Positions 1 through 10,365 are shown, counted from the first letter of the stretch. The stretch: 10,426 nucleotides of DNA from a bacterium (GCA_046757025.1 JBHHXN010000182.1:1-10426); one strand, 5' to 3'. Numbers and translations are program-made. The notes: generated by a model from the letters alone, not told the origin.

Positions 1-43
1 TTTTTCTCTAACTAATCGAGTGGCTCAATCAGGGCATTTCCAA

Positions 44-85
44 GGAGACAGGAGATCCATATTAATAATTTGATCCCCTGTCTCC
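44..85 (-). terminator. Stem-loop downstream of the gntR gene (possible terminator or mRNA-stabilising hairpin)
   Basis: GGAGACAGGAGATC (44-57) and GATCCCCTGTCTCC (72-85) form a 14-bp inverted repeat. The single mismatch becomes a G:U pair on the minus-strand RNA. It lies 17 nt after the gntR stop, but no strong poly-U tail follows. Confidence 0.45.
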
Positions 86-102: not shown

Positions 103-486
103 TCACTTTTTGCCATTTTTTTTCAAAATCATTTTAATGGCTTCCTGGATATCCTCAATCGACACCCCCTCTTCCAGCGCCGATAAAATGATGGGCTTTA
201 AGCTTTCCAGTAGTCTCTCACGGGCCATATCCTTTTTCCTTTTTTCAGGTAATTCCGAAACAAAAAATCCCTTACCCCGGCGGGAGAGAATTAAGTTTTC
301 ACGCAGCAGACTTTCGTAGGCACGCTGCACCGTAATCACACTCACGTGCTGTGCTCGGGCTAACGCTCTGATAGAAGGCAAACTGGTTCCGGCCGCCAGC
401 TCTCCGTTGAGAATTTTCGCACGAATTTGTCGGATGATCTGACTTTGCAGCGGTTCCGAAGATAGATCCGTTAAATTTAAAAGCAT
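103..486 (-). CDS. GntR family transcriptional regulator, YtrA subfamily (127 aa)
   Basis: Winged-HTH signature PLQSQI..QI...I..GEL..G..LPSIR.LA....VS..TVQRAY..L...NLI..RRGKGFFV, followed by the very short helical C-terminal domain typical of YtrA. ATG at 486 is preferred over TTG at 492: it aligns with the paralog start (MLLNLT), has AAGG upstream, and sits 2 nt after the upstream TGA. Confidence 0.93.
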   Translation of the reverse strand: MLLNLTDLSSEPLQSQIIRQIRAKILNGELAAGTSLPSIRALARAQHVSVITVQRAYESLLRENLILSRRGKGFFVSELPEKRKKDMARERLLESLKPIILSALEEGVSIEDIQEAIKMILKKNGKK

Positions 487-488
487 GC

Positions 489-1997
489 TCAACCTTTTAT
501 TTTCAAAACCAGTATGGTTCGGTCGTCCTGCGGCTCGATTTCTTCTGCAAAATGCGTCAAGTCCTGCAAGACCGAGTGCACGATTTGGGAAGAGTTTGCC
601 GCCGTTTGACTTTTAAGCAGCTCCAGCAGACGCGGTTCCCCGTATTCTTCTCGCTGTGCATTCATGGTTTCAGTGACGCCGTCGGTGTAAAAAAATATAA
701 AATCGCCGGCCCGTAAGTGGATTTTCCCGGTGGCATAAGTAGCCGGTTGTAACACCCCTAACGCTGGGCCTCCGACTTTTAACCACTGCCATGTTCCATC
801 TTTTCTCATCACCAGGGGATGGTTATGCCCCGCCGTAACATATTCAAAAATTCGAGACTTCTTATTGAAAACCCCATAAAAAAGCGTAACAAATTTATCT
901 TTCGGTGTAAAACGAACCAGTTGTTGATTCAAATTATTTAACATCGCTGGCAGATTTTGCGGGCGCTGCATTTCGCTTTTTAAGATGGCCTGAATTTGTG
1001 AAATGAGTAAAGCTGCAGATAACCCGCTGCCGCACGCGTCGCCAATAACCAGACCAAAACGGGCCGCGTCGATAGGAAGATAATCGTAAAAATCTCCGCT
1101 CACTGCATGGCGGGAAGAGATGTGGGCCGAAACAGAGATCTGGTCTTCATCCGGCAGCTTTTTGGGCAGCAGATCATGCTGGATTTGCATGGCGGTGGCG
1201 ATATCATCCTGCATGCGCCGGCGCTCGATGGCTTCTACATAAAAACGGGCGGTGGCTAACGCGGTCACGAACTGGTTGAGCAAGATTTTCAGCAAATTTA
1301 AATCATCCTTTGAATAGGCGTTGCCATCAACCTTTGCCGTTAACCCTAAAAAGCCCAATAATTCGTCGGATTCGATCAAAGGCAATATCAGCTCGATTTG
1401 ACGTTTTAAAAGCTGCTGGCTCAATCCACAGTTGCTGGAACCTGATTGAAAATCCTTAACTGTGACCGGCAGTTTAAATTTTGTGATGATTTTAAAAATT
1501 TCATCTGTGCGATCAACCAGCTCTGGTTGCGGAAACTCCTCACAAGGGTAAAACGTATAAACATCTTGCTGCTCATTGTAAAAAACAAAAGTTACACTTC
1601 TTACCAACAACGCTTTTTTAATATTTTCTTCTACAATTTGCCGCAGCTTATCGGGATCAAAGACGGAGATCAGTTGTTTTGAAAACGATTCTATGGTGCT
1701 CAAAGTAGAATCTTTTCCCGACAAACGCTGCCTTGCTATTTCCTGTTTTTGATCCGGAGTCAACGCCGCCACATAAAATCCACTGCTTCGCCGCGTTCGG
1801 ATCAATCCTTCGCGCGCCAACGCATTATAAGCACGCTGAACGGTATTCCGACTGACTTGCTGGGAGCGTGCAAACAAGTTAACGGGTTCCAGCTCAACGC
1901 CTTCTCTGAGATCCCCATCGATTATTTTTTCACTCAGTTGACGAATTATTTGAATGTGTAATGGTTCGGTCGAAAGCTCGGTTAAATTGAGTAGCAT
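489..1997 (-). CDS. GntR(YtrA)-HTH / GAF / PP2C (SpoIIE, RsbU-like) Ser/Thr phosphatase fusion protein (502 aa)
   Basis: aa 1-92 are a GntR wHTH (VSRNTVQRAYNALAREGLI..RRSSGFYV). The middle is GAF-like (LILPLIESDELLGFLGL..K.DG.AYSKDDLNLLKILLNQ..TAL). A coiled-coil linker (A.QIQ..LLP) leads to a SpoIIE domain with the metal-ligand motifs VSGDFYD, IGDACGSG, YTDGVTE and QDDRT, plus FVTLFY and AGHNHP. Confidence 0.9.
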   Translation of the reverse strand: MLLNLTELSTEPLHIQIIRQLSEKIIDGDLREGVELEPVNLFARSQQVSRNTVQRAYNALAREGLIRTRRSSGFYVAALTPDQKQEIARQRLSGKDSTLSTIESFSKQLISVFDPDKLRQIVEENIKKALLVRSVTFVFYNEQQDVYTFYPCEEFPQPELVDRTDEIFKIITKFKLPVTVKDFQSGSSNCGLSQQLLKRQIELILPLIESDELLGFLGLTAKVDGNAYSKDDLNLLKILLNQFVTALATARFYVEAIERRRMQDDIATAMQIQHDLLPKKLPDEDQISVSAHISSRHAVSGDFYDYLPIDAARFGLVIGDACGSGLSAALLISQIQAILKSEMQRPQNLPAMLNNLNQQLVRFTPKDKFVTLFYGVFNKKSRIFEYVTAGHNHPLVMRKDGTWQWLKVGGPALGVLQPATYATGKIHLRAGDFIFFYTDGVTETMNAQREEYGEPRLLELLKSQTAANSSQIVHSVLQDLTHFAEEIEPQDDRTILVLKIKG

Positions 1998-2032
1998 GAT
2001 GGAGCCGTTTTTTAATTGTTAATAGTATTCAT

Positions 2033-2057
2033 ACTGTATATACCCAATATATACAGT
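2033..2057. promoter_or_regulatory. YtrA-type GntR operator (perfect inverted repeat)
   Basis: ACTGTATATA-CCCAA-TATATACAGT: 10-bp perfect arms containing TGTA-N13-TACA, the spacing known for the B. subtilis YtrA site (AGTGTA-N13-TACACT). It lies 35 bp upstream of the fusion-gene ATG in an AT-rich divergent intergenic region. Confidence 0.8.
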
Positions 2058-2182
2058 TAAGTTTCATAATCACTCTTTTTTTTTAATAATTTGTTAATTT
2101 CACTTGATTTCATTTTAGATGGAGCGAAATAAAGAGAAACAGTTGCAGGTTGTTCACTGTCCAATTTAGATTTGCACTCAAA

Positions 2183-4594
2183 ATGATCATGGCTAAGATA
2201 GAAAAAGTTTTGCTACGCTTCTTGATTTTCGTGATGGTTTTCACTTTTCACAACACCGTGATTGCACAAATAATCGAGACCGCTCCCCGTGCAGAAAAAA
2301 CTCAAAAAGCCACAGAAGGTATAAAAAAGATTCGGCGGACAATAAAGGATAGATTTGCCAACTCGCCGGTTCGACCGGATTATCCCATTCAGAATTACTA
2401 TCAACCACCCACTGGCAGAACTACTGCGAGGTTGTTTTCTGCCGTGAACGATACCACCCCGCCGAATGCGCCCACGGAGCTGACGGTGGTGACCGAGAGT
2501 ATTCACAGTATCTTTGCCAGTTGGACAGCCGCTACAGACCCCGAATCAGGCATCGATTATTATGCCTACGGCATCGGTAGTCAGCCCGGTGCTGCCGACA
2601 TCCGTTGGTGGCAAAGCACCGGCCAACAAACAGGGGCGTACGGTTTAAGTTTAGATATGCTGGGTATTGCCGAAGATTCCACGTTTTATATTTCGATTTA
2701 CGCGGTGAACGGTGCAGGTCTTCAAAGCGTCATAGTCAGCTCCGGCTCCACGGTAGTAAACTGGCAGGATCTGGGAAACCAAAACAACGCTCTAACGGTT
2801 GCGTATTCAGACTTCGGTTACGATTCCACCGGGGTCAACATCATTTCAGGCTGGGACTCCACTGAAATGCAAATGTTCGACCATTTTATTTCCAGAATGA
2901 ATCCCATCATCAAGGAGATTTATGGGCCGCCATCGCATTCTTACACCGTCACTCTGGTAAAGAACCTCTGGTACGCCGGCTCCAATATATTTTTTCCCAG
3001 CTCCAATCAAGTCCACATGTCGGAGATGTACCCACAACTTTTGACCCACGAGCTCATTCACGCGTATCGCGACAACGTCATCCTTTCCACTAACGACAAC
3101 TGGCAATTTCATCCCCAATTGAGCGGCTTTGAAGAAAGTTTTGCACAGGGGGCCAGTTACGCATGCATGAATCGATATATCGAGCTCTACCCAAACGACG
3201 TCATCGTGGACTCCACCTATCTTTTTGGCTCAAGCATGCTATGGGATTACGATTATCGCAACGTACCGGCCATCACTACGGAAGATTTTTGGAGCGATTA
3301 TGGTGGCATTGGCCTGTTTTGGGAGCGCTACGAACTGGGCGCCGCGGCCATGCGCAAAATACATGTAGAAGATCCTGACTTTTATCATAAATTCAACACA
3401 GAATATTATCACCGCCTGAACCAGGATCATTCTCTCACCACCCGCCGCGATCTAATGATTGAAATCATCGCCAAGGTGGTGCCCGAAATCGAAATGCAGC
3501 CCGCCAAAGTTTGGATAAACAACCAGCGTATTTTTGATTGTCAAGTTGTACCTGGCCGCAAAATATGGGTATGGACTCAGCGCTATCCCTGGCAGGAATA
3601 CCTCGTCTTCCAACGCATTTTTTTCTACGAAACATTTGAAAATGGCAGTGAATGGGCCTACTGGGACGAAAACAACCAAACCTGGGTTTACCATCACCTG
3701 AACGGCTCCATTGGAACCGGGACGGTTACCACATACGGCGACTCTGCCATCTGGCAAGGCAGCTTGCAAATTGAACCGGTCGACAATCCGCCGGATTTTT
3801 GGGGCTTTGGTTTTGATGAGCTGAATTTTTCCACGGATGACGATCTGATGCCCTGGCCCGGAGGGTCTCCGAGTGATTTTTTACTCGGTATGCACGATTT
3901 TAATCTCTACCGTTTTAACCTAAATTTCGGGGGTATCACCGAGCAGGTCCATCGGATCATCGGAGATAATTTGCGCAACCCCGCCGGCGTTTTTGGGGGC
4001 ATTCTCAATGCTCAAGATGGCGTCATTTACCTCGATCATGAAAATTACCCGCCGGAACCGCCCCTGCCTGTGGTGAACGGTGTGTTTTACGGTACGCGAA
4101 AGTGGGCCTCGGTGCCCAATCCCAGAACCGGCGGTACGGACAGTCAACCCGGCAGAATCCACGTTCGTTTTGTACAAAACGATGGTCGTCATTTCCTCGC
4201 TCAGCGCAACATCGATTGGGGCAGTGCCAATGGCAACCAGGTTTTTCTTTTTGATACCGAGGCGATGCAACTGGACACCAACCTGGTCTCTTCTGCGGAA
4301 TTCCAGCGGCAAACCTTTGAATTTCGGCTACAGCAAAATTACCCCAATCCGTTCAATCCCACTACGGAAATTCGTTACACGCTGGCCCTTTCCGGCAGAG
4401 TGGAGTTGGTCATTTTTAATTTACTCGGGCAAAGGGTAAAAACATTGGTTTCAGCCCAGCAAAGCCGCGGGCATCACATCGTTAAATGGAACGGCGCCGA
4501 TGATCATGGGCGGCTGGTTAGCAGTGGGGTTTATTTTTACCTTTTGAAGTCCGGCGCATTTCGCACGGTTAAAAAGTTGCTTTTGGTTCGTTAG
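2183..4594 (+). CDS. Secreted protein: Fn3-like domain + HExxH (gluzincin-like) putative zinc metallopeptidase + C-terminal FlgD-Ig/T9SS type-A-like sorting domain
   Basis: Signal peptide MAKIEKVLLRFLIFVMVFTFHNTVIA|Q. Fn3-like segment DTTPPNAPTEL...SWTAATDPESGIDYY.YGIG...YISIYAVNGAGL. LLTHELIHAY (HELIH at 3047-3061) is followed about 24 aa later by GFEESFA. C-terminus FRLQQNYPNPFNPTTEIRY...FNLLGQRV..L...WNG.D..G..VSSGVYFY.L...KKLLLVR. Start is uncertain: ATG 2183 or 2189, while the ORF track starts at TTG 2150. Confidence 0.85.
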   Translation: MIMAKIEKVLLRFLIFVMVFTFHNTVIAQIIETAPRAEKTQKATEGIKKIRRTIKDRFANSPVRPDYPIQNYYQPPTGRTTARLFSAVNDTTPPNAPTELTVVTESIHSIFASWTAATDPESGIDYYAYGIGSQPGAADIRWWQSTGQQTGAYGLSLDMLGIAEDSTFYISIYAVNGAGLQSVIVSSGSTVVNWQDLGNQNNALTVAYSDFGYDSTGVNIISGWDSTEMQMFDHFISRMNPIIKEIYGPPSHSYTVTLVKNLWYAGSNIFFPSSNQVHMSEMYPQLLTHELIHAYRDNVILSTNDNWQFHPQLSGFEESFAQGASYACMNRYIELYPNDVIVDSTYLFGSSMLWDYDYRNVPAITTEDFWSDYGGIGLFWERYELGAAAMRKIHVEDPDFYHKFNTEYYHRLNQDHSLTTRRDLMIEIIAKVVPEIEMQPAKVWINNQRIFDCQVVPGRKIWVWTQRYPWQEYLVFQRIFFYETFENGSEWAYWDENNQTWVYHHLNGSIGTGTVTTYGDSAIWQGSLQIEPVDNPPDFWGFGFDELNFSTDDDLMPWPGGSPSDFLLGMHDFNLYRFNLNFGGITEQVHRIIGDNLRNPAGVFGGILNAQDGVIYLDHENYPPEPPLPVVNGVFYGTRKWASVPNPRTGGTDSQPGRIHVRFVQNDGRHFLAQRNIDWGSANGNQVFLFDTEAMQLDTNLVSSAEFQRQTFEFRLQQNYPNPFNPTTEIRYTLALSGRVELVIFNLLGQRVKTLVSAQQSRGHHIVKWNGADDHGRLVSSGVYFYLLKSGAFRTVKKLLLVR

Positions 4595-5450: not shown

Positions 5451-5865
5451 TTAAGTTCCGGCTTGCAATTCCGGGCTAAAAAAGTAGCGTTTGATCATCA
5501 CCAGCCAGAGCACGGCACCACCGAGCAGGAGAAGAGAAAATAATAGCATCACATCCCATTGCGTTTGGACAGTGAATTCTGCTGGTTTGAAATATTCCGC
5601 CAGGTAGGCATCGCGCAAAACGGTGCGCATGATCGCCATAAACACCACAACCAGCGCTAATAATCCCGCAGACAAGAAAAGGCCTTTTCGCGGATCTTCC
5701 CGGCGCAGAGCCTGGGACATGACGAATTTAGCTGCCACCGCCAAACATACAATTCATGGCCAGAATATGTAAAACAAAAGTGAGTACCAGCAATAACTTA
5801 AAAAGAAAAAACGGCGCCGGTAAAGGAATGGGATCCAGTGATGGCAGCATCATTTGTGTATCCAT
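5451..5865 (-). pseudogene. Internally deleted, frameshifted integral membrane protein (partner of a CydA-like/cytochrome c fusion)
   Basis: GGAGG SD (5872-5876) and ATG 5865 give MDTQMMLPSLDPIPLPAPFFLFKLLLVLTFVLHILAMNCMFGGGS* (stop 5728-5730). A second frame overlapping at about 5730-5744 gives ...AIMRTVLRDAYLAEYFKPAEFTVQTQWDVMLLFSLLLLGGAVLWLVMIKRYF...* (5451). From memory these match the two ends of a several-hundred-aa membrane protein family encoded next to cytochrome c-fused CydA homologs; the middle is missing. Confidence 0.7.
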
Positions 5866-5879
5866 TAGTGACCTCCCGA

Positions 5880-6239
5880 TCAATTGGTTTCCTTGAAAGT
5901 TTCATTAAACCACCTCGCCAGAAGTGCGCGTTCGTTTTCCGTCAAATTCAGCTCCGGCATCGATTCATTCACAGCGGATAAATCTTCCATAAAAACCGCG
6001 ATGGTCTCCTGATCAAATTCCGTGAGAAAAGTGACCATGGGGTCTTGTGATTTTGGCAGATGGCACACCGCGCAGTTCTGTTGAAACAAATCCGGCCCGG
6101 TGACTTCATGCAAAGACCTTTCACGCCAGGGCGCCACTTGAGACAGGAACGCAGCCAGCGCTTGCCGCTCTTTCGGCAAACCCACAAACGGCGCCATGGG
6201 GGATGGTATTAAACTGAAAGGCGGGTATTCTTCATACAA
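5880..6239 (-). pseudogene. 5'-truncated c-type cytochrome (C-terminal one and a half class I cytochrome c domains)
   Basis: One complete domain: GPDLFQQNCAVCH (CxxCH at 6060-6074) ... MPELNLTENERALLARW. It is preceded by only the tail of another domain (MAPFVGLPKERQALAAFL), which lacks its CxxCH. There is no signal peptide or TM helix, an in-frame TAG at 6246-6248, and no SD before the TTG. Confidence 0.72.
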
Positions 6240-6353: not shown

Positions 6354-9300
6354 TTACTTCAACAGCAGCATGCGCTTGGTGGCGCTGAAATCGCCCGCCA
6401 CAATCTGGTAAACGTAAATGCCCGAAGACACCTGCAGGCCACTGCGGTCGCGGGCATCCCATTCAACCACATACTGGCCCGGAAACTTTTGCTCATCCAC
6501 CAGCACGCGCACCAGCTCACCTAATAAATTGTAAATCCGCAATTGCACCGACACGCCGTCGGACATTTTGTTCGGAACGTCGTAGCGGATTTTGGTGGTG
6601 GGATTAAAGGGATTGGGATAGTTCTGCGCCAGTCGAAACGCCACCGGCAACTGTTCTAACTTCAGCTCGAAATCCAATTCATCCACCACATCCAGTAAAA
6701 ACAGATCGGCGTGGGTGTTGGCTGGGCCTTCATACACGATCAACATCTCATTCTCACCCTGGCGCAGGTACTCCACCAAATCGATGGTGATGCGACCTTC
6801 ACGCGGCATGAGAAAGGCGTTGATTTCCGTTGCCACCCGACTCGGATCGGTAAACAGGCTGAACTTGTGGCCGTTCAAATCCACGCGGATTTCAGTCAAT
6901 CCAAAATTTGTCAACTGAAAATAGCGCTCGATTTCAGGAAAAGTAAAGCCAAATTGGCGCTGCGCCCGATCCGTGGAAAGCGAAACAAACACCGGATCAC
7001 AGTTGAATTTGTTGCCGCACACATCGAAAAGATCGATGCTGAAACCCAACGACTGATTCGGGTCGATGGCGTCGATGCGGAACTTGACTTCTTTCGCCCC
7101 CGGCGTGAACGGATCCACCGTCAAGGTGGCGTTGCGCAGCCGCTTGGGTACCACCTCTGCGAGGCCGCTGTGATCATCGAAAAAAGTCCCCACCACCGAA
7201 TTGCCGTCGTGCACAAAAGTACATCTCGGCGGTAGGTTATCGAAATCCACTGTGATGGAATCACTTATGACCTTGATCGCACCCGTGCTGTCTTGAATGC
7301 GGCAGTTAGCCACCACTGCGTTGCGGCCGGATGATAACACCACGGTCGCCACAAATACGCCGTCCACCAGCTCTGCTTCCACCCCGTTGATATCGCAGGT
7401 TACGACCAACGACGAAAGCGAATCGAAATTGGTGGTGGCGGTCACTCTCACCGTGTCGGTACAGACCACCGCCTCGGCTTTTGGCGAAATGATTTCGATA
7501 TCACAGATCAGCGGAGAATTGGCAAACACCTGCACCGTATCAGTACAAACCGATACGTTACCGCAGCTATCGGTGACCGTGCAGGTCGCCACCAGAAAAT
7601 TATCTCCCTCATCTAACGGCACCGTGACCGCAAACGTGTTTCCGGAAACCGATGCCGCCACACCATTCACTTCACACTCAACAGTGAGCGGCGGCGCACC
7701 GCCGCTGAGGGTGGTCCTCCCCACCACCGTCAAGCTGTCGGTACAGAAGACCGAGCTATCCGCAGATGGCGAAGTAATTTCCACCGCACAAACCGGAGCG
7801 CCCGCCGTAAACACCGTCACCGAATCCTTACAAACGGTAACCTGGCCGCAGCTATCGGTGACAGTGCAAACCGCCACCAGGACATTTTCACCCGCAGCTA
7901 ACGGCACCTTTGCCTGAAAGGCGTTGCCCACTACCAGAGCGGGAATGCCGTTAATTTCGCACTCGATGGCAAAGGGCGGAACGCCGCCGCTGATGGTCGT
8001 CACGCCAGCGACGTCTGCACTGTCGGCGCAGGAAAATGTGCTGTCGGCGGGCAAGGTGATTTCCACCTTGCACACTGGCGGCGTACTGGTGAAGACCACC
8101 ACCGAATCCCGGCAAACCGTGATTCTGCCGCAACTGTCTTCCACGGTAAAAACCGCCACCAGCAAATTCGCACCAGCACTGAGTGGCACTGCAGTATGAA
8201 AGGTGTTGCCGCTGACCGTGGCGGCCAGGCTATTCACCGTGATGGAAGTTGTGAACGGCGGCGCTCCGCCGCTCAAATTGGTATCGCCTTTAACTTCTAC
8301 GCTGTCAGCACAGAAAAAAGCGCTGTCGGCGGGAGAAGTGATAGTGATTTCACAGACAGGGGGTTCTGTGCATTCGACCTTCACCGTGTCGCGACAGATC
8401 GTCTGGTTGCCGAGACTGTCGACCACCGTGCAAGTCGCCACCAAAGTTTCGTTTTCAGGTGAACAGGGCAAGATGACACTGAACATATTTTCTTTAATTT
8501 CGGCGTTGACGCCATTAACGTCACAGGTGATGGTAAACGGAGGCAATCCACCGGGTATATTGAGCAGGCCCATCACTTTTACGCTGTCCGTGCAAATAAT
8601 CTCCCCTTCCTTGGGAGCGGTGATATCGACTAAACAAGAAAGTTCTTCTGAACAAATCACTGAAACAGTGGCGGTGACACTGGTTTGATCTTCTGCCGTG
8701 GCCGTGGCCGCGATATCACTTAGACCACCGACCACACTCAAAGTGGTGGCAAAAGTGCCGGCCGCATCCAATGTCACGGGATGGCCGTTTACCATGACCA
8801 CATCGTTCAATCCCACAATGGGAATAGCCGGCAGAACTTGCTTCAGCTCAGCCGGGTCTTCCACTTGCAGGAAAGTGCCACCGGTACCTTCTGCAATAGC
8901 GGAGAGCTCCTCCGCGCTCGATTCTGTGGTGATACCGATTGCGTTGATGACAATGCCTCTGGAGGCGGCCTCGGCGATTTCATCGGCAAGCTCCCCTCCG
9001 ATGCGATTGTTGCCATCCGAAAGAAAAAATACGATGTTCTTTTCATCCTCTGATTGACTTCCCAGGACGGAAAGCACCACCCGCAAAGCCGCTTCAAAAT
9101 TGGTGCTGTTGCCCAAAGAGTCCCGAGAGATGGGCTGAAAAAGCTCAATAGAGCCGCCCGCAATCAGCTCGGAGTCTAGCGACCGCAAAACTTCCTCGAT
9201 GTCGGACAGACCATTTTCGTCCAGATCAACTCGAGGCGGTGCAGTAAAATTTTGGAATCCCGTATTTGGATCGACGTCGGCACTGGCAGGCCGACTGGCA

Positions 9301-9770
9301 AAAGCGATGACCCCGATATCCAATTGCGGCAAATTCCCAATACTTTCATTCAGTGCCAGTATGCCGGCTATTTCCGCATCCAGAATATCCCCTTCGATGT
9401 TATCGCCATTGACATCATCGCCGGCGTCAATCTTACCATCGCCATTGACATCGATGGGCGGATGAAACGCCGGGTCTGTGGTGCTGCCCGAGACATCGAT
9501 GACATAGAGAATGTTTATGGCGTTTTCCGGGGCATCGCTGAGCGTCACAAATCCGCTGACGTCGAAAGTACAGGACGGGGGGCCAGGTGAAATCGTGCCA
9601 TCCAACGGAGAAGTAATGCGCACCGTTAAAATCTGACCGGTGGTCGTGGTGTCGGAATTGGGATTTTGAGCAAATAAGAAATCAGTAAAGAATACTAAAA
9701 CAACAATTGGCAGGAAAATCTTCATCAAAAAGGATAATCCACGGCATCTATGATTAATTGAGCTATTCAT
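6354..9770 (-). CDS. Secreted vWA-domain adhesin-like protein with Cys-rich Ig-like repeats and C-terminal FlgD-Ig/T9SS type-A-like sorting domain (1138 aa)
   Basis: AAGGAG SD 7 nt before the ATG. Signal peptide ...KIFLPIVVLVFFTDFLFA|Q. vWA with complete MIDAS (VIDVSGS at 9483-9503, STNFEAAL, FFLSDG) plus INAIGI and LSAIAEGTGGTF. Five ~94-aa repeats follow, then FRLAQNYPNPFNPTTKIRY...YNLLGELVR.L...WD.RD.SG.QVSSGIYVY...KRMLLLK. Confidence 0.92.
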   Translation of the reverse strand: MNSSINHRCRGLSFLMKIFLPIVVLVFFTDFLFAQNPNSDTTTTGQILTVRITSPLDGTISPGPPSCTFDVSGFVTLSDAPENAINILYVIDVSGSTTDPAFHPPIDVNGDGKIDAGDDVNGDNIEGDILDAEIAGILALNESIGNLPQLDIGVIAFASRPASADVDPNTGFQNFTAPPRVDLDENGLSDIEEVLRSLDSELIAGGSIELFQPISRDSLGNSTNFEAALRVVLSVLGSQSEDEKNIVFFLSDGNNRIGGELADEIAEAASRGIVINAIGITTESSAEELSAIAEGTGGTFLQVEDPAELKQVLPAIPIVGLNDVVMVNGHPVTLDAAGTFATTLSVVGGLSDIAATATAEDQTSVTATVSVICSEELSCLVDITAPKEGEIICTDSVKVMGLLNIPGGLPPFTITCDVNGVNAEIKENMFSVILPCSPENETLVATCTVVDSLGNQTICRDTVKVECTEPPVCEITITSPADSAFFCADSVEVKGDTNLSGGAPPFTTSITVNSLAATVSGNTFHTAVPLSAGANLLVAVFTVEDSCGRITVCRDSVVVFTSTPPVCKVEITLPADSTFSCADSADVAGVTTISGGVPPFAIECEINGIPALVVGNAFQAKVPLAAGENVLVAVCTVTDSCGQVTVCKDSVTVFTAGAPVCAVEITSPSADSSVFCTDSLTVVGRTTLSGGAPPLTVECEVNGVAASVSGNTFAVTVPLDEGDNFLVATCTVTDSCGNVSVCTDTVQVFANSPLICDIEIISPKAEAVVCTDTVRVTATTNFDSLSSLVVTCDINGVEAELVDGVFVATVVLSSGRNAVVANCRIQDSTGAIKVISDSITVDFDNLPPRCTFVHDGNSVVGTFFDDHSGLAEVVPKRLRNATLTVDPFTPGAKEVKFRIDAIDPNQSLGFSIDLFDVCGNKFNCDPVFVSLSTDRAQRQFGFTFPEIERYFQLTNFGLTEIRVDLNGHKFSLFTDPSRVATEINAFLMPREGRITIDLVEYLRQGENEMLIVYEGPANTHADLFLLDVVDELDFELKLEQLPVAFRLAQNYPNPFNPTTKIRYDVPNKMSDGVSVQLRIYNLLGELVRVLVDEQKFPGQYVVEWDARDRSGLQVSSGIYVYQIVAGDFSATKRMLLLK
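7240..8636 (-). repeat. Five tandem intragenic ~94-aa Cys-rich Ig-like repeats
   Basis: First-Cys codons start at 8636, 8354, 8072, 7790 and 7505 (spacing 282, 282, 282, 285 nt). Consensus C.VEITSP.D....C.DSV.V.G...SGG.PP....C.VNG..A.V.GN.F...VPL..G.N.LVA.CTV.DSCG..TVC.D.V.VF. Confidence 0.9.
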
Positions 9771-9896: not shown

Positions 9897-10026
9897 AGAT
9901 AGGCCCCCTTCGGTTGTTGTCGGTATATTTACAATAAAAGATAAAAATTGCAAAAATCAAGGTCTATTTTGAATTAGCGTAATATATTTTATTTATTCGC
10001 AATTAGTTGTGTAGTTTCTATCTAAT

Positions 10027-10176
10027 TAGTGTCCATCCGTAAAGAGCCCTTTTTTGTCATTCGCCCAATCTTTAAGCGGGAATCCATTGAGCCGTTAGGC
10101 ATGAGATTCCCGATGAGCTTGTCCCTGCATGTTGTAAGCAGGGAGCACTCGGGAATGCGATTACGGATGGACACTA
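10027..10176. mobile_element. MITE-like element A (150 bp)
   Basis: Perfect 16-bp terminal inverted repeats TAGTGTCCATCCGTAA (10027-10042) / TTACGGATGGACACTA (10161-10176), with TA at both ends and no coding capacity. Confidence 0.7.
10055..10157. repeat. REP-like nested palindromes inside element A
   Basis: TGTCATTC...CGGGAATC (10077-10084) / GATTCCCG (10105-10112); ATTCCCGA (10106-10113) / TCGGGAAT (10149-10156); inner hairpin TCCCTGC (10122-10128) / GCAGGGA (10138-10144). Resembles the widespread GTCATTCCC...GGGAATCC REP/dRS3-like repeats. Confidence 0.6.
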
Positions 10177-10178
10177 CT

Positions 10179-10365
10179 TAGTGTCTGAATGAGAGCATGA
10201 TGAGAAATGCGCGACATAAAATCCTTTTCGCGAAGGCGTTCCTGCGACGAGGCTCAGGACAGGCCCTTCGACAAAGCTCAGAACAGGCCCCGGCCGAGCT
10301 AAGCAGGATTTCATCCTTGGCCAGCAGGCTTTCGGGAAGATAGGGTAGTTTTCGTTCGGACACTA
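10179..10365. mobile_element. MITE-like element B (187 bp)
   Basis: Imperfect terminal inverted repeats TAGTGTCTGAATGA (10179-10192) / TCGTTCGGACACTA (10352-10365), 12/14 matches. Shares the TAGTGTC...GACACTA tips with element A and starts 2 bp after it. Confidence 0.6.
10241..10288. repeat. Two tandem 24-bp REP-like units inside element B
   Basis: CCTGCGACGAGGCTCAGGACAGGC (10241-10264) and CCTTCGACAAAGCTCAGAACAGGC (10265-10288) are 20/24 identical. They resemble the common CCTTCGACAxGCTCAGG intergenic repeat type. Confidence 0.7.

Follow-up and report, generated by a model that had tools for sequence, protein, structure and literature searches.

Phosphatases of the RsbU type, such as RsbU and RsbP of Bacillus subtilis, RsbZ and Pseudomonas aeruginosa RssB, combine an N-terminal input domain with a SpoIIE domain that carries all metal ligands, and a long linker helix leads into their PPM fold. 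In the available part of PMC12143880, PAS, receiver, GAF and HAMP domains as well as the four-helix bundle of RsbU are named as input domains, and the linker of RsbU is described to dimerise and activate the phosphatase under exchangeable N-terminal domains. YtrA-subfamily repressors of the GntR family are usually found with an ABC transporter operon and a long palindromic site, as laid out in the accessible sections of PMC4494728 and PMC12772383. In Staphylococcus aureus (pmtR-pmtABCD), a repressor of this subfamily heads an ABC-2 exporter operon with two ATPases. The operon of B. subtilis (ytrGABCDEF) comprises an extra first gene, ytrA, an ATPase, permeases and a second ATPase with its permease and, according to excerpts of PMC12772383, is linked to envelope stress. 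The induction of YtrA-subfamily repressors is open for most members: the part of PMC6746942 consulted gives no known ligand, and the same excerpts of PMC12772383 treat the inducer of B. subtilis YtrA as still speculative. Here, a stretch of bacterial DNA of 10,426 nucleotides (GCA_046757025.1, JBHHXN010000182.1:1-10426; referred to as the window) was analysed. It encodes a protein in which a YtrA-like winged-helix head is fused to a GAF domain and a SpoIIE phosphatase, and whose gene lies directly before a stand-alone ytrA gene.

The fusion has the SpoIIE domain, metal ligands, linker helix and N-terminal input domain of RsbU, RsbP, RsbZ and RssB, but its input is a GntR/YtrA winged-helix head, and its operon lacks a STAS, anti-sigma or sigma gene. 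The operon resembles pmtR-pmtABCD in its repressor, its ABC-2 exporter and its two ATPases, and PmtR and PmtA were the best NCBIfam matches (for the former, among small repressors) of its YtrA and its ABC ATPase, both below cut-off. It differs in the phosphatase fusion before the repressor, in one to nine permease paralogues of about 215 aa and in a promoter of the extracytoplasmic function (ECF) type; a PSM-like cargo was not identified. The gene order of ytrGABCDEF is likewise recovered, with the fusion instead of the small YtrG in the slot before ytrA. The GAF domain, linker and PPM domain are shared, at 37-44% identity, with multi-transmembrane GAF-SpoIIE proteins of about 750 aa from the same lineages, in which a membrane N-terminus (no Pfam match) replaces the YtrA head; these proteins (P0057, P0062, P0070 and kin) make up a single clade within the PPM tree of the fusions. 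Both halves of the fusion and the operon type are already known, and automatic annotations of homologues already give both domain names. For the domain combination, the relaxed wing of a head with a kept fold, the repeated loss of the GAF domain and the ECF-type promoter, no description was found in the literature searched.

Architecture and distribution of the fusion

The fusion gene occupies positions 489..1997 on the minus strand and encodes 502 aa. A YtrA-like winged-helix head with the first half of alpha4 (aa 1-92; 1722..1997) is followed by a GAF domain (approximately aa 96-250; 1248..1712), a conserved helical linker (aa 251-278; 1164..1247) and the PPM/SpoIIE phosphatase domain into which it leads (498..1163), all on the same strand. 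Pfam placed GntR at residues 16-76 (40.8 bits) and SpoIIE at residues 312-500 (PF07228; 162 bits vs a cut-off of 25), both above cut-off; a GAF_2 match at 177-247 (25.7 bits) fell below its cut-off of 28.6. The GAF assignment is backed by profile matches to solved GAF domains (positions 99-260), and the domain is also seen in an AlphaFold model of the fusion (mean pLDDT 85.7). The best fold match of this model was P. aeruginosa RssB, and a single helix (230-276) enters its PPM domain. The head and the downstream YtrA were 46% identical over 131 alignment columns. The metal-ligand motifs of SpoIIE domains (GD, D-x-x-G, TDG and DD) are complete, with D302, D305, D320, D439, D491 and D492 all in place. 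A first-pass annotation of the DNA had described a GntR-GAF-SpoIIE fusion of this length with all metal-binding Asp motifs, two nucleotides from a GntR gene, and was borne out on each count: the stop codon of the fusion lies at 489 and the ATG of ytrA at 486.

The same annotation had named as a refuter that the fusion might occur in one assembly only, with no reads spanning the head-GAF junction near 1720. A homologue search gave 1642 matches among 7993 scored candidates, and 94 of the best 120, which were annotated (query counted), contained PF00392 and PF07228 together. Contigs bridged the junction in 4/4 runs, all of which came from one study and one of which (X1) is possibly the source of the window DNA itself; the search of sequencing runs named no RNA data set. 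An assembly artefact was ruled out on the basis of the two-domain homologues and the bridging contigs. A search of the literature, with subscription papers mostly outside its reach, yielded no description of a GntR/YtrA-SpoIIE fusion, in agreement with the earlier view of this architecture as uncharacterised, although supplements of domain censuses could still list it. An atlas search returned generic GAF-SpoIIE clusters only. The homologues with a named taxon belonged mostly to candidate division KSB1, and the window is therefore likely to derive from this little-studied phylum.

A ytrA gene of the type found in the window was detected in 30 of 167 genomes of the phylum (E < 1e-59). In 26 of these it was accompanied by a fusion gene; in two, the gene immediately before it, at the end of the contig, encoded a PPM domain; one had a deletion remnant, and one genome had none of these. 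Three of the 26 fusion genes were broken by a frameshift, a 170-aa internal deletion or a 438-aa internal deletion. From 561 ytrA loci in metagenomes, the best 80 were also examined, and 77 of these could be placed: 29 had a fused head upstream, 15 a PPM domain cut by the contig end and 33 no PPM domain. A scan of genome contigs gave two relevant loci among 11. Since all 26 genomes with the fusion carry ytrA, yet many ytrA loci are without a fusion, the fusion depends on ytrA and ytrA does not depend on the fusion. The search of architectures and gene neighbourhoods proposed by the first-pass annotation thus revealed fusion, ytrA and operator conserved together as a real module.

Decay products of the fusion comprised a remnant of the PPM C-terminus, the two internal deletions and the frameshifted copy (loci L041, L034/L066, L053, L026); close relatives of the frameshifted copy are intact. 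In genome G012, fusion and ytrA lie on separate contigs (L144, L145), with a transposase-like open reading frame (ORF), judged by sequence, directly before ytrA. In genome G010, a DUF418 membrane gene is placed between the two (L143:1482-2750).

The stand-alone YtrA and the exporter operon

The stand-alone repressor gene (103..486, minus strand, ATG at 486) encodes a YtrA-subfamily GntR protein of 127 aa that has a Pfam GntR match and an intact recognition helix and wing. The protein shows the size and fold of the subfamily (about 125 aa, a winged helix-turn-helix and alpha4-alpha5) and its usual context, an ABC transporter operon with one long palindromic site. A premise of the first-pass annotation, namely a YtrA without the usual ABC operon, was an effect of a contig break. 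Position 1 of the window is a contig end, and the first eight nucleotides (1..8) overlap the end of contig C88, on which the operon continues. The end of C88 is 33 nt away from a gene for an ABC ATPase that is 86% identical to the ATPase after ytrA in a relative. Single records in 4/4 runs span both sides of this join; a 4594-nt contig of X1 bridges it widely and those of the other runs by about 30 nt on one side. A stand-alone regulatory pair without a transporter was ruled out, as the operon runs into the ABC genes on C88.

The operon consists, in this order, of the fusion gene, ytrA, an ATPase gene, six permease paralogues, a second ATPase gene, an ABC-2 permease gene and a seventh paralogue. 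The permease paralogues measure about 210-240 aa and have 4-6 transmembrane segments (seven at L042:11859-19035, contig C88), and one copy is split into two frames (17726-18369). In the stretches fetched from relatives, 1-9 such paralogues were present. An ABC ATPase gene came next after ytrA in 65 of 66 metagenome loci with at least 300 nt of downstream DNA. A 14-bp hairpin without a following U-tract lies between ytrA and the ATPase gene (44..85, minus strand). It is likely that YtrA represses this exporter operon.

Fourteen fusion-less loci had a gap of more than 90 nt, and in eight of them a short ORF of 30-50 codons, basic and then hydrophobic, was seen before ytrA (L076, L089, L090, L100, L111, L114, L126, L135). 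These ORFs lie between operator and ytrA and occupy the slot of the small transmembrane protein YtrG in B. subtilis.

Predicted operator and overlapping promoters

The perfect operator that had been noticed upstream of the fusion was confirmed as a 10-5-10 inverted repeat at 2033..2057 (ACTGTA-N13-TACAGT). Across the 5.96-Mb genome, this predicted YtrA operator was matched at 20/20 nowhere else; the next best match was 15/20, and no second copy above this value was found in the genome, which contains 54 perfect 10-5-10 repeats of any sequence. Because the site is nearly invariant before fusions as well as before fusion-less ytrA genes and also precedes more distant YtrAs, it is predicted to belong to YtrA and not to the fusion. 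Since the genes upstream of the operator differ among relatives, the site is tied to the ytrA operon and not to the divergent gene at 2150.

The operator overlaps two putative promoters on the minus strand. A predicted ECF-type -35 box (TGAAAC, 2061..2066) is separated by 16 nt from a predicted -10 box (GGTA, 2041..2044) that lies within the operator; among the loci, the motif reads G[ACT]AAC, 16 nt, [ACG]GTA. These boxes agree with the AAC at -35 and the CGT-type -10 boxes given for ECF promoters in the consulted part of PMC5758882, as they show an AAC -35, a (C)GT-type -10 and a spacing of about 16 nt. In addition, a possible sigma70 -10 box (TATATT) is found at 2046..2051; its TTGAC -35 is present in 30/45 fusion loci and degenerate here. 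The conservation of the ECF-type boxes was assessed in 74 non-identical loci, after removal of duplicates, loci with an operator score below 15 and loci with truncated ytrA. Both boxes were found in 42, neither in 27 and a discordant pair in five; by locus type, the motif preceded 39/45 fusion loci vs 4/29 fusion-less ones. Among 3073 upstream regions of this genome, a relaxed form of the motif occurred 66 times at a spacer of 16 vs a mean of 29.5 at other spacers, with a pattern that was picked after the motif had been seen and out of 12 tried, two minimal ones of which gave no peak.

The motif also precedes an operon of this genome that encodes an rpoE-like sigma factor, a zinc-finger (zf-HC2) anti-sigma factor and DegP (contig C32, L142:698-3235). 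The sigma gene on C32 was found in 77/81 genomes of the class, and 20/30 of its loci have an upstream motif of the GGAAC-N16-GGTT type; the genome as a whole contains 33 matches to sigma region 2. Control of the fusion operon by an ECF sigma factor is likely on the basis of these motifs; the C32 protein may be a candidate. As the anti-sigma factor of the C32 protein is of the membrane type, feedback via partner switching is not implied.

A head with a kept fold and a relaxed wing

In the protein of the window, the wing of the fused head reads RRSSG instead of RRGKG, and R40 is replaced by N. To extend the comparison to the family, 13 DNA-contact positions in alpha2, alpha3 and the wing were taken from the FadR/AraR contact table of PMC4494728, and 32 of 44 pairs of fusion and cognate YtrA were kept as non-redundant (85% identity filter). 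Conservation of the contact positions amounted to 99% in the cognate YtrAs vs 46% in the fused heads, and that of the wing to 97% vs 37%. At similar divergence (45% vs 41%), the G-x-G wing was present in 32/38 YtrAs, one of which resembles a cut fusion, vs 6/49 fusions. R40 was found in 37/38 vs 31/49 and K/R72 in 34/38 vs 7/49 sequences of these sets, S38 was kept in 17/49 fusions, and the mean net charge of the wing was +2.4 in YtrAs vs +0.2 in fusions. Ratios of non-synonymous to synonymous change (dN/dS), obtained with our own counting script from nine disjoint pairs and few sites, indicated purifying selection on both the head (0.14) and the PPM domain (0.13); for the wing, they were 0.29 in the fused head vs 0.019 in YtrA. 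The core and alpha1 positions P12, Q16, Q20, I25, L36, Y57 and L60 were invariant in fused heads and YtrAs of all 32 pairs. Given this invariance, the low dN/dS of the head and the confinement of the relaxation to the wing, the fused head is not simply decaying: its fold is kept and only the wing is relaxed. Some positions, namely R44 (82% vs 46%), T6 (80%) and H14 (61%), were even more constant in fusions than in YtrAs.

The alpha4-alpha5 helices build the YtrA dimer and set the spacing of its heads, according to the part of PMC6746942 consulted. Alpha4 ends at residue 92 in the model of the fusion, whereas in that of YtrA alpha4 covers residues 81-105 and alpha5 residues 110-124. The fused head thus departs from the subfamily in its contact residues and wing, with the helix contacts partly kept, and in its dimer arm. 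Since the second half of alpha4 and alpha5 are absent, the models make a homo- or heterodimer of the YtrA type unlikely. Binding of the fused head to the operator is also unlikely. The earlier proposal that the phosphatase is tethered to DNA loses ground with the family-wide degeneration of the wing, the exchange of R40 in this protein and the missing dimer helices.

GAF domain, linker and phosphatase

The GAF domain is an optional part of the fusion. It is missing from 25/44 locus fusions, and family members without it measure about 345 aa. Among the best 150 representatives of 50% clusters that matched a profile of the head, 35 contained head and PPM, 13 head, GAF and PPM, and one head and GAF; 24 longer matches without GAF or PPM were, as judged by first residues and match counts, mostly tandem-HTH-like or unrelated GntR proteins. 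In a quick tree built from 63 PPM rows, eight changes were needed to account for the GAF-less state, at least three of which are forced by well-supported branches, and fusions with intermediate deletions exist. An essential sensor function of the GAF domain as a family trait was ruled out by this independent, repeated loss, which also weakens the role given to the domain in the first-pass annotation.

In GAF-less forms, alpha4 joins the linker directly. The lengths of the head-to-PPM linkers range from 24 to 69 residues, with 33 residues as the commonest value (13/45 lineages). The linker has the lowest dN/dS of the fusion protein (0.06). In the phosphatase domain, D302, D320, D439 and D492 are present in 44/44 intact locus fusions, D491 in 43 and D305 in 41; the 38 cluster representatives with a full domain have D302 and D492 in 38/38 and D320, D439 and D491 in 37/38. 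The phosphatase is predicted from these residues to be active.

The operon does not show the clustering of STAS, anti-sigma kinase and sigma genes with the phosphatase that is typical of partner-switching operons. The genome itself contains 21 STAS matches, 14 matches to the RsbW family above cut-off and 29 matches to Hanks-type kinases. As no STAS, RsbW-like or kinase gene is conserved beside the operon, the substrate is likely to be encoded in trans and, by analogy to RsbU-type enzymes, may most likely be a STAS protein of the anti-anti-sigma type.

Other features of the window

Divergent from the fusion, a gene at 2150-4594 (plus strand) encodes an 814-aa protein with a C-terminal domain of the type IX secretion system (T9SS) type and a HELIH (HExxH) motif, which by its sequence is likely a secreted metalloprotease. 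A 1138-aa VWA protein with Cys-containing Ig-like repeats of about 94 aa and a T9SS-type C-terminal domain is encoded at 6354-9770 (minus strand). Between them, 5451-6239 (minus strand) contains pieces of two apparently broken genes, one for a cytochrome c and one for a membrane protein. A 21-nt inverted repeat at 10022-10181, with 95% complementary arms that lie 118 nt apart, is possibly a small mobile or repeat element.

Interpretation

We favour, tentatively and at a little under an even chance, the reading that the fusion is a phosphatase of the RsbU type whose input module is a repurposed YtrA head, and that it is made on derepression and ECF firing and acts on a STAS-type protein encoded in trans. 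A YtrA dimer would cover the operator and the overlapping promoters, and envelope stress or an inducer would release it. Amphipathic peptides are a lead for such a signal, since PmtR is released by them; the part of PMC5080381 consulted leaves open where on PmtR they bind. An ECF sigma factor would meanwhile fire from TGAAAC-N16-GGTA, and the fusion would be produced along with the exporter. The N-terminal module, a YtrA head derived by duplication, likely provides an input for dimerisation or sensing, and head and alpha4 may govern dimerisation of the phosphatase via the helical linker in a manner similar to RsbU. The protein to be dephosphorylated would be encoded outside the operon, most likely as one of the STAS proteins of the anti-anti-sigma type in this genome, and the fusion would thus form an output branch that joins the Ytr/Pmt response to a partner-switching network.

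Several observations weigh against this reading. The fusion is dispensable, given the 33 of 77 metagenome ytrA loci without an upstream phosphatase (some with little upstream DNA) and the internal deletions. The association of the ECF motif with the fusion was not significant on five independent pairs, and the rpoE promoters of relatives (GGAAC...GGTT) deviate by one base in each box. DNA-contact residues are partly kept in fusions (R40 in 31/49, T52 in 35/49, R/K55 in 43/49), and residues 36-77 of the fusion in the window are as basic as those of YtrA (+5 each). The heptad register of the head-to-PPM linkers was in phase in 25/45 lineages and for 8/20 distinct lengths (p 0.19), which is suggestive at most. 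Partner genes were rare near the operon (STAS in 1/53 loci, RsbW-like in 1/53, kinase in 0/53), and the genome already encodes 28 SpoIIE-type proteins.

Alternatively, the entry of a GAF-PPM gene into the operon might have given rise to the head through tandem duplication, and the head might have been kept only as a folded cap for dimerisation or translation start, with a constitutively active phosphatase controlled only by YtrA- and ECF-dependent transcription. This is improbable in our estimate, although identity among fusions is the same for head and PPM domain (43% each) and far below that of YtrA (73%), fused heads resemble their own YtrA no more than they do other YtrAs (0.428 vs 0.430), linker lengths vary and the fusion is often lost or internally deleted. 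A mere cap fits poorly with the surface positions R44, T6 and H14, whose conservation is higher in the fusion than in YtrA, with the low dN/dS of the linker and the dominance of its 33-residue form, and with the retention of the head while the GAF domain was repeatedly shed. A comparably low probability is assigned to an enzyme directed at YtrA, in which the head docks the phosphatase on the repressor, or pairs with it in a mixed dimer whose one DNA-binding half is crippled; YtrA would thereby be dephosphorylated or titrated and the on/off kinetics of the operon be set. The constant company of ytrA (26/26 genomes), the 2-nt gap in this operon, the lack of another substrate gene near the operon and the N-terminal strand and alpha1 kept in fusion and YtrA alike would be in line with this, as would the invariant S38, S49 and T52 on the DNA face of YtrA and the 29 Hanks-type kinase matches. 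These three residues, however, are ordinary GntR contacts to DNA according to the accessible part of PMC4494728, the fusion lacks the alpha4-alpha5 dimer arm, a comparison of low power gave no sign of co-evolution with the cognate YtrA, and near-identical YtrAs function without a fusion in many loci. No literature on YtrA phosphorylation was found, as judged by titles and the openings of abstracts.

Ranked somewhat lower is a variant in which Ser/Thr phosphorylation, or a signal sensed by the head itself, switches the YtrA-type repressors of this clade, and in which the fusion acts as a self-targeting reset enzyme whose own copy of the head lets it recognise either that signal or YtrA. If true, it would represent a phosphorylation-based control of a GntR/YtrA repressor and provide an enzymatic read-out for the long-sought inducer of YtrA. 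The least probable of these alternatives is a phosphatase that is positioned or switched by DNA, with a head that attaches to the operator, to the GAAAC box beside it or, without specificity, to DNA in general. Its basis is the Pfam GntR score above cut-off, the R40, S/N49, T52, R/K55 and Y57 kept in most fusions, and the occurrence of the GAAAC box with the fusion in 39/45 loci vs 4/29 fusion-less ones. Set against these are the rare G-x-G wing, K/R72 and S38, the N in place of R40 in this protein, the specificity positions 50, 51 and 54, which vary freely despite a near-invariant operator, and the absence of a YtrA-type dimer arm to bridge a 25-bp site. The GAAAC box, moreover, co-occurs with the G of the -10 box at ECF spacing, a spacing at which the motif is enriched genome-wide.

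With the RsbU-like output branch as the favoured reading, the fusion likely relays the envelope-stress state of its operon to phosphorylation switches elsewhere in the cell. With it, the input domains of RsbU-type phosphatases come to include the fold of a transcription factor, and a DNA-binding domain is seen while it is being repurposed, with its fold kept and its wing relaxed. A phosphatase with a retooled YtrA head is also a soluble protein with an enzymatic output, against which candidate signals of the YtrA subfamily may be screened.

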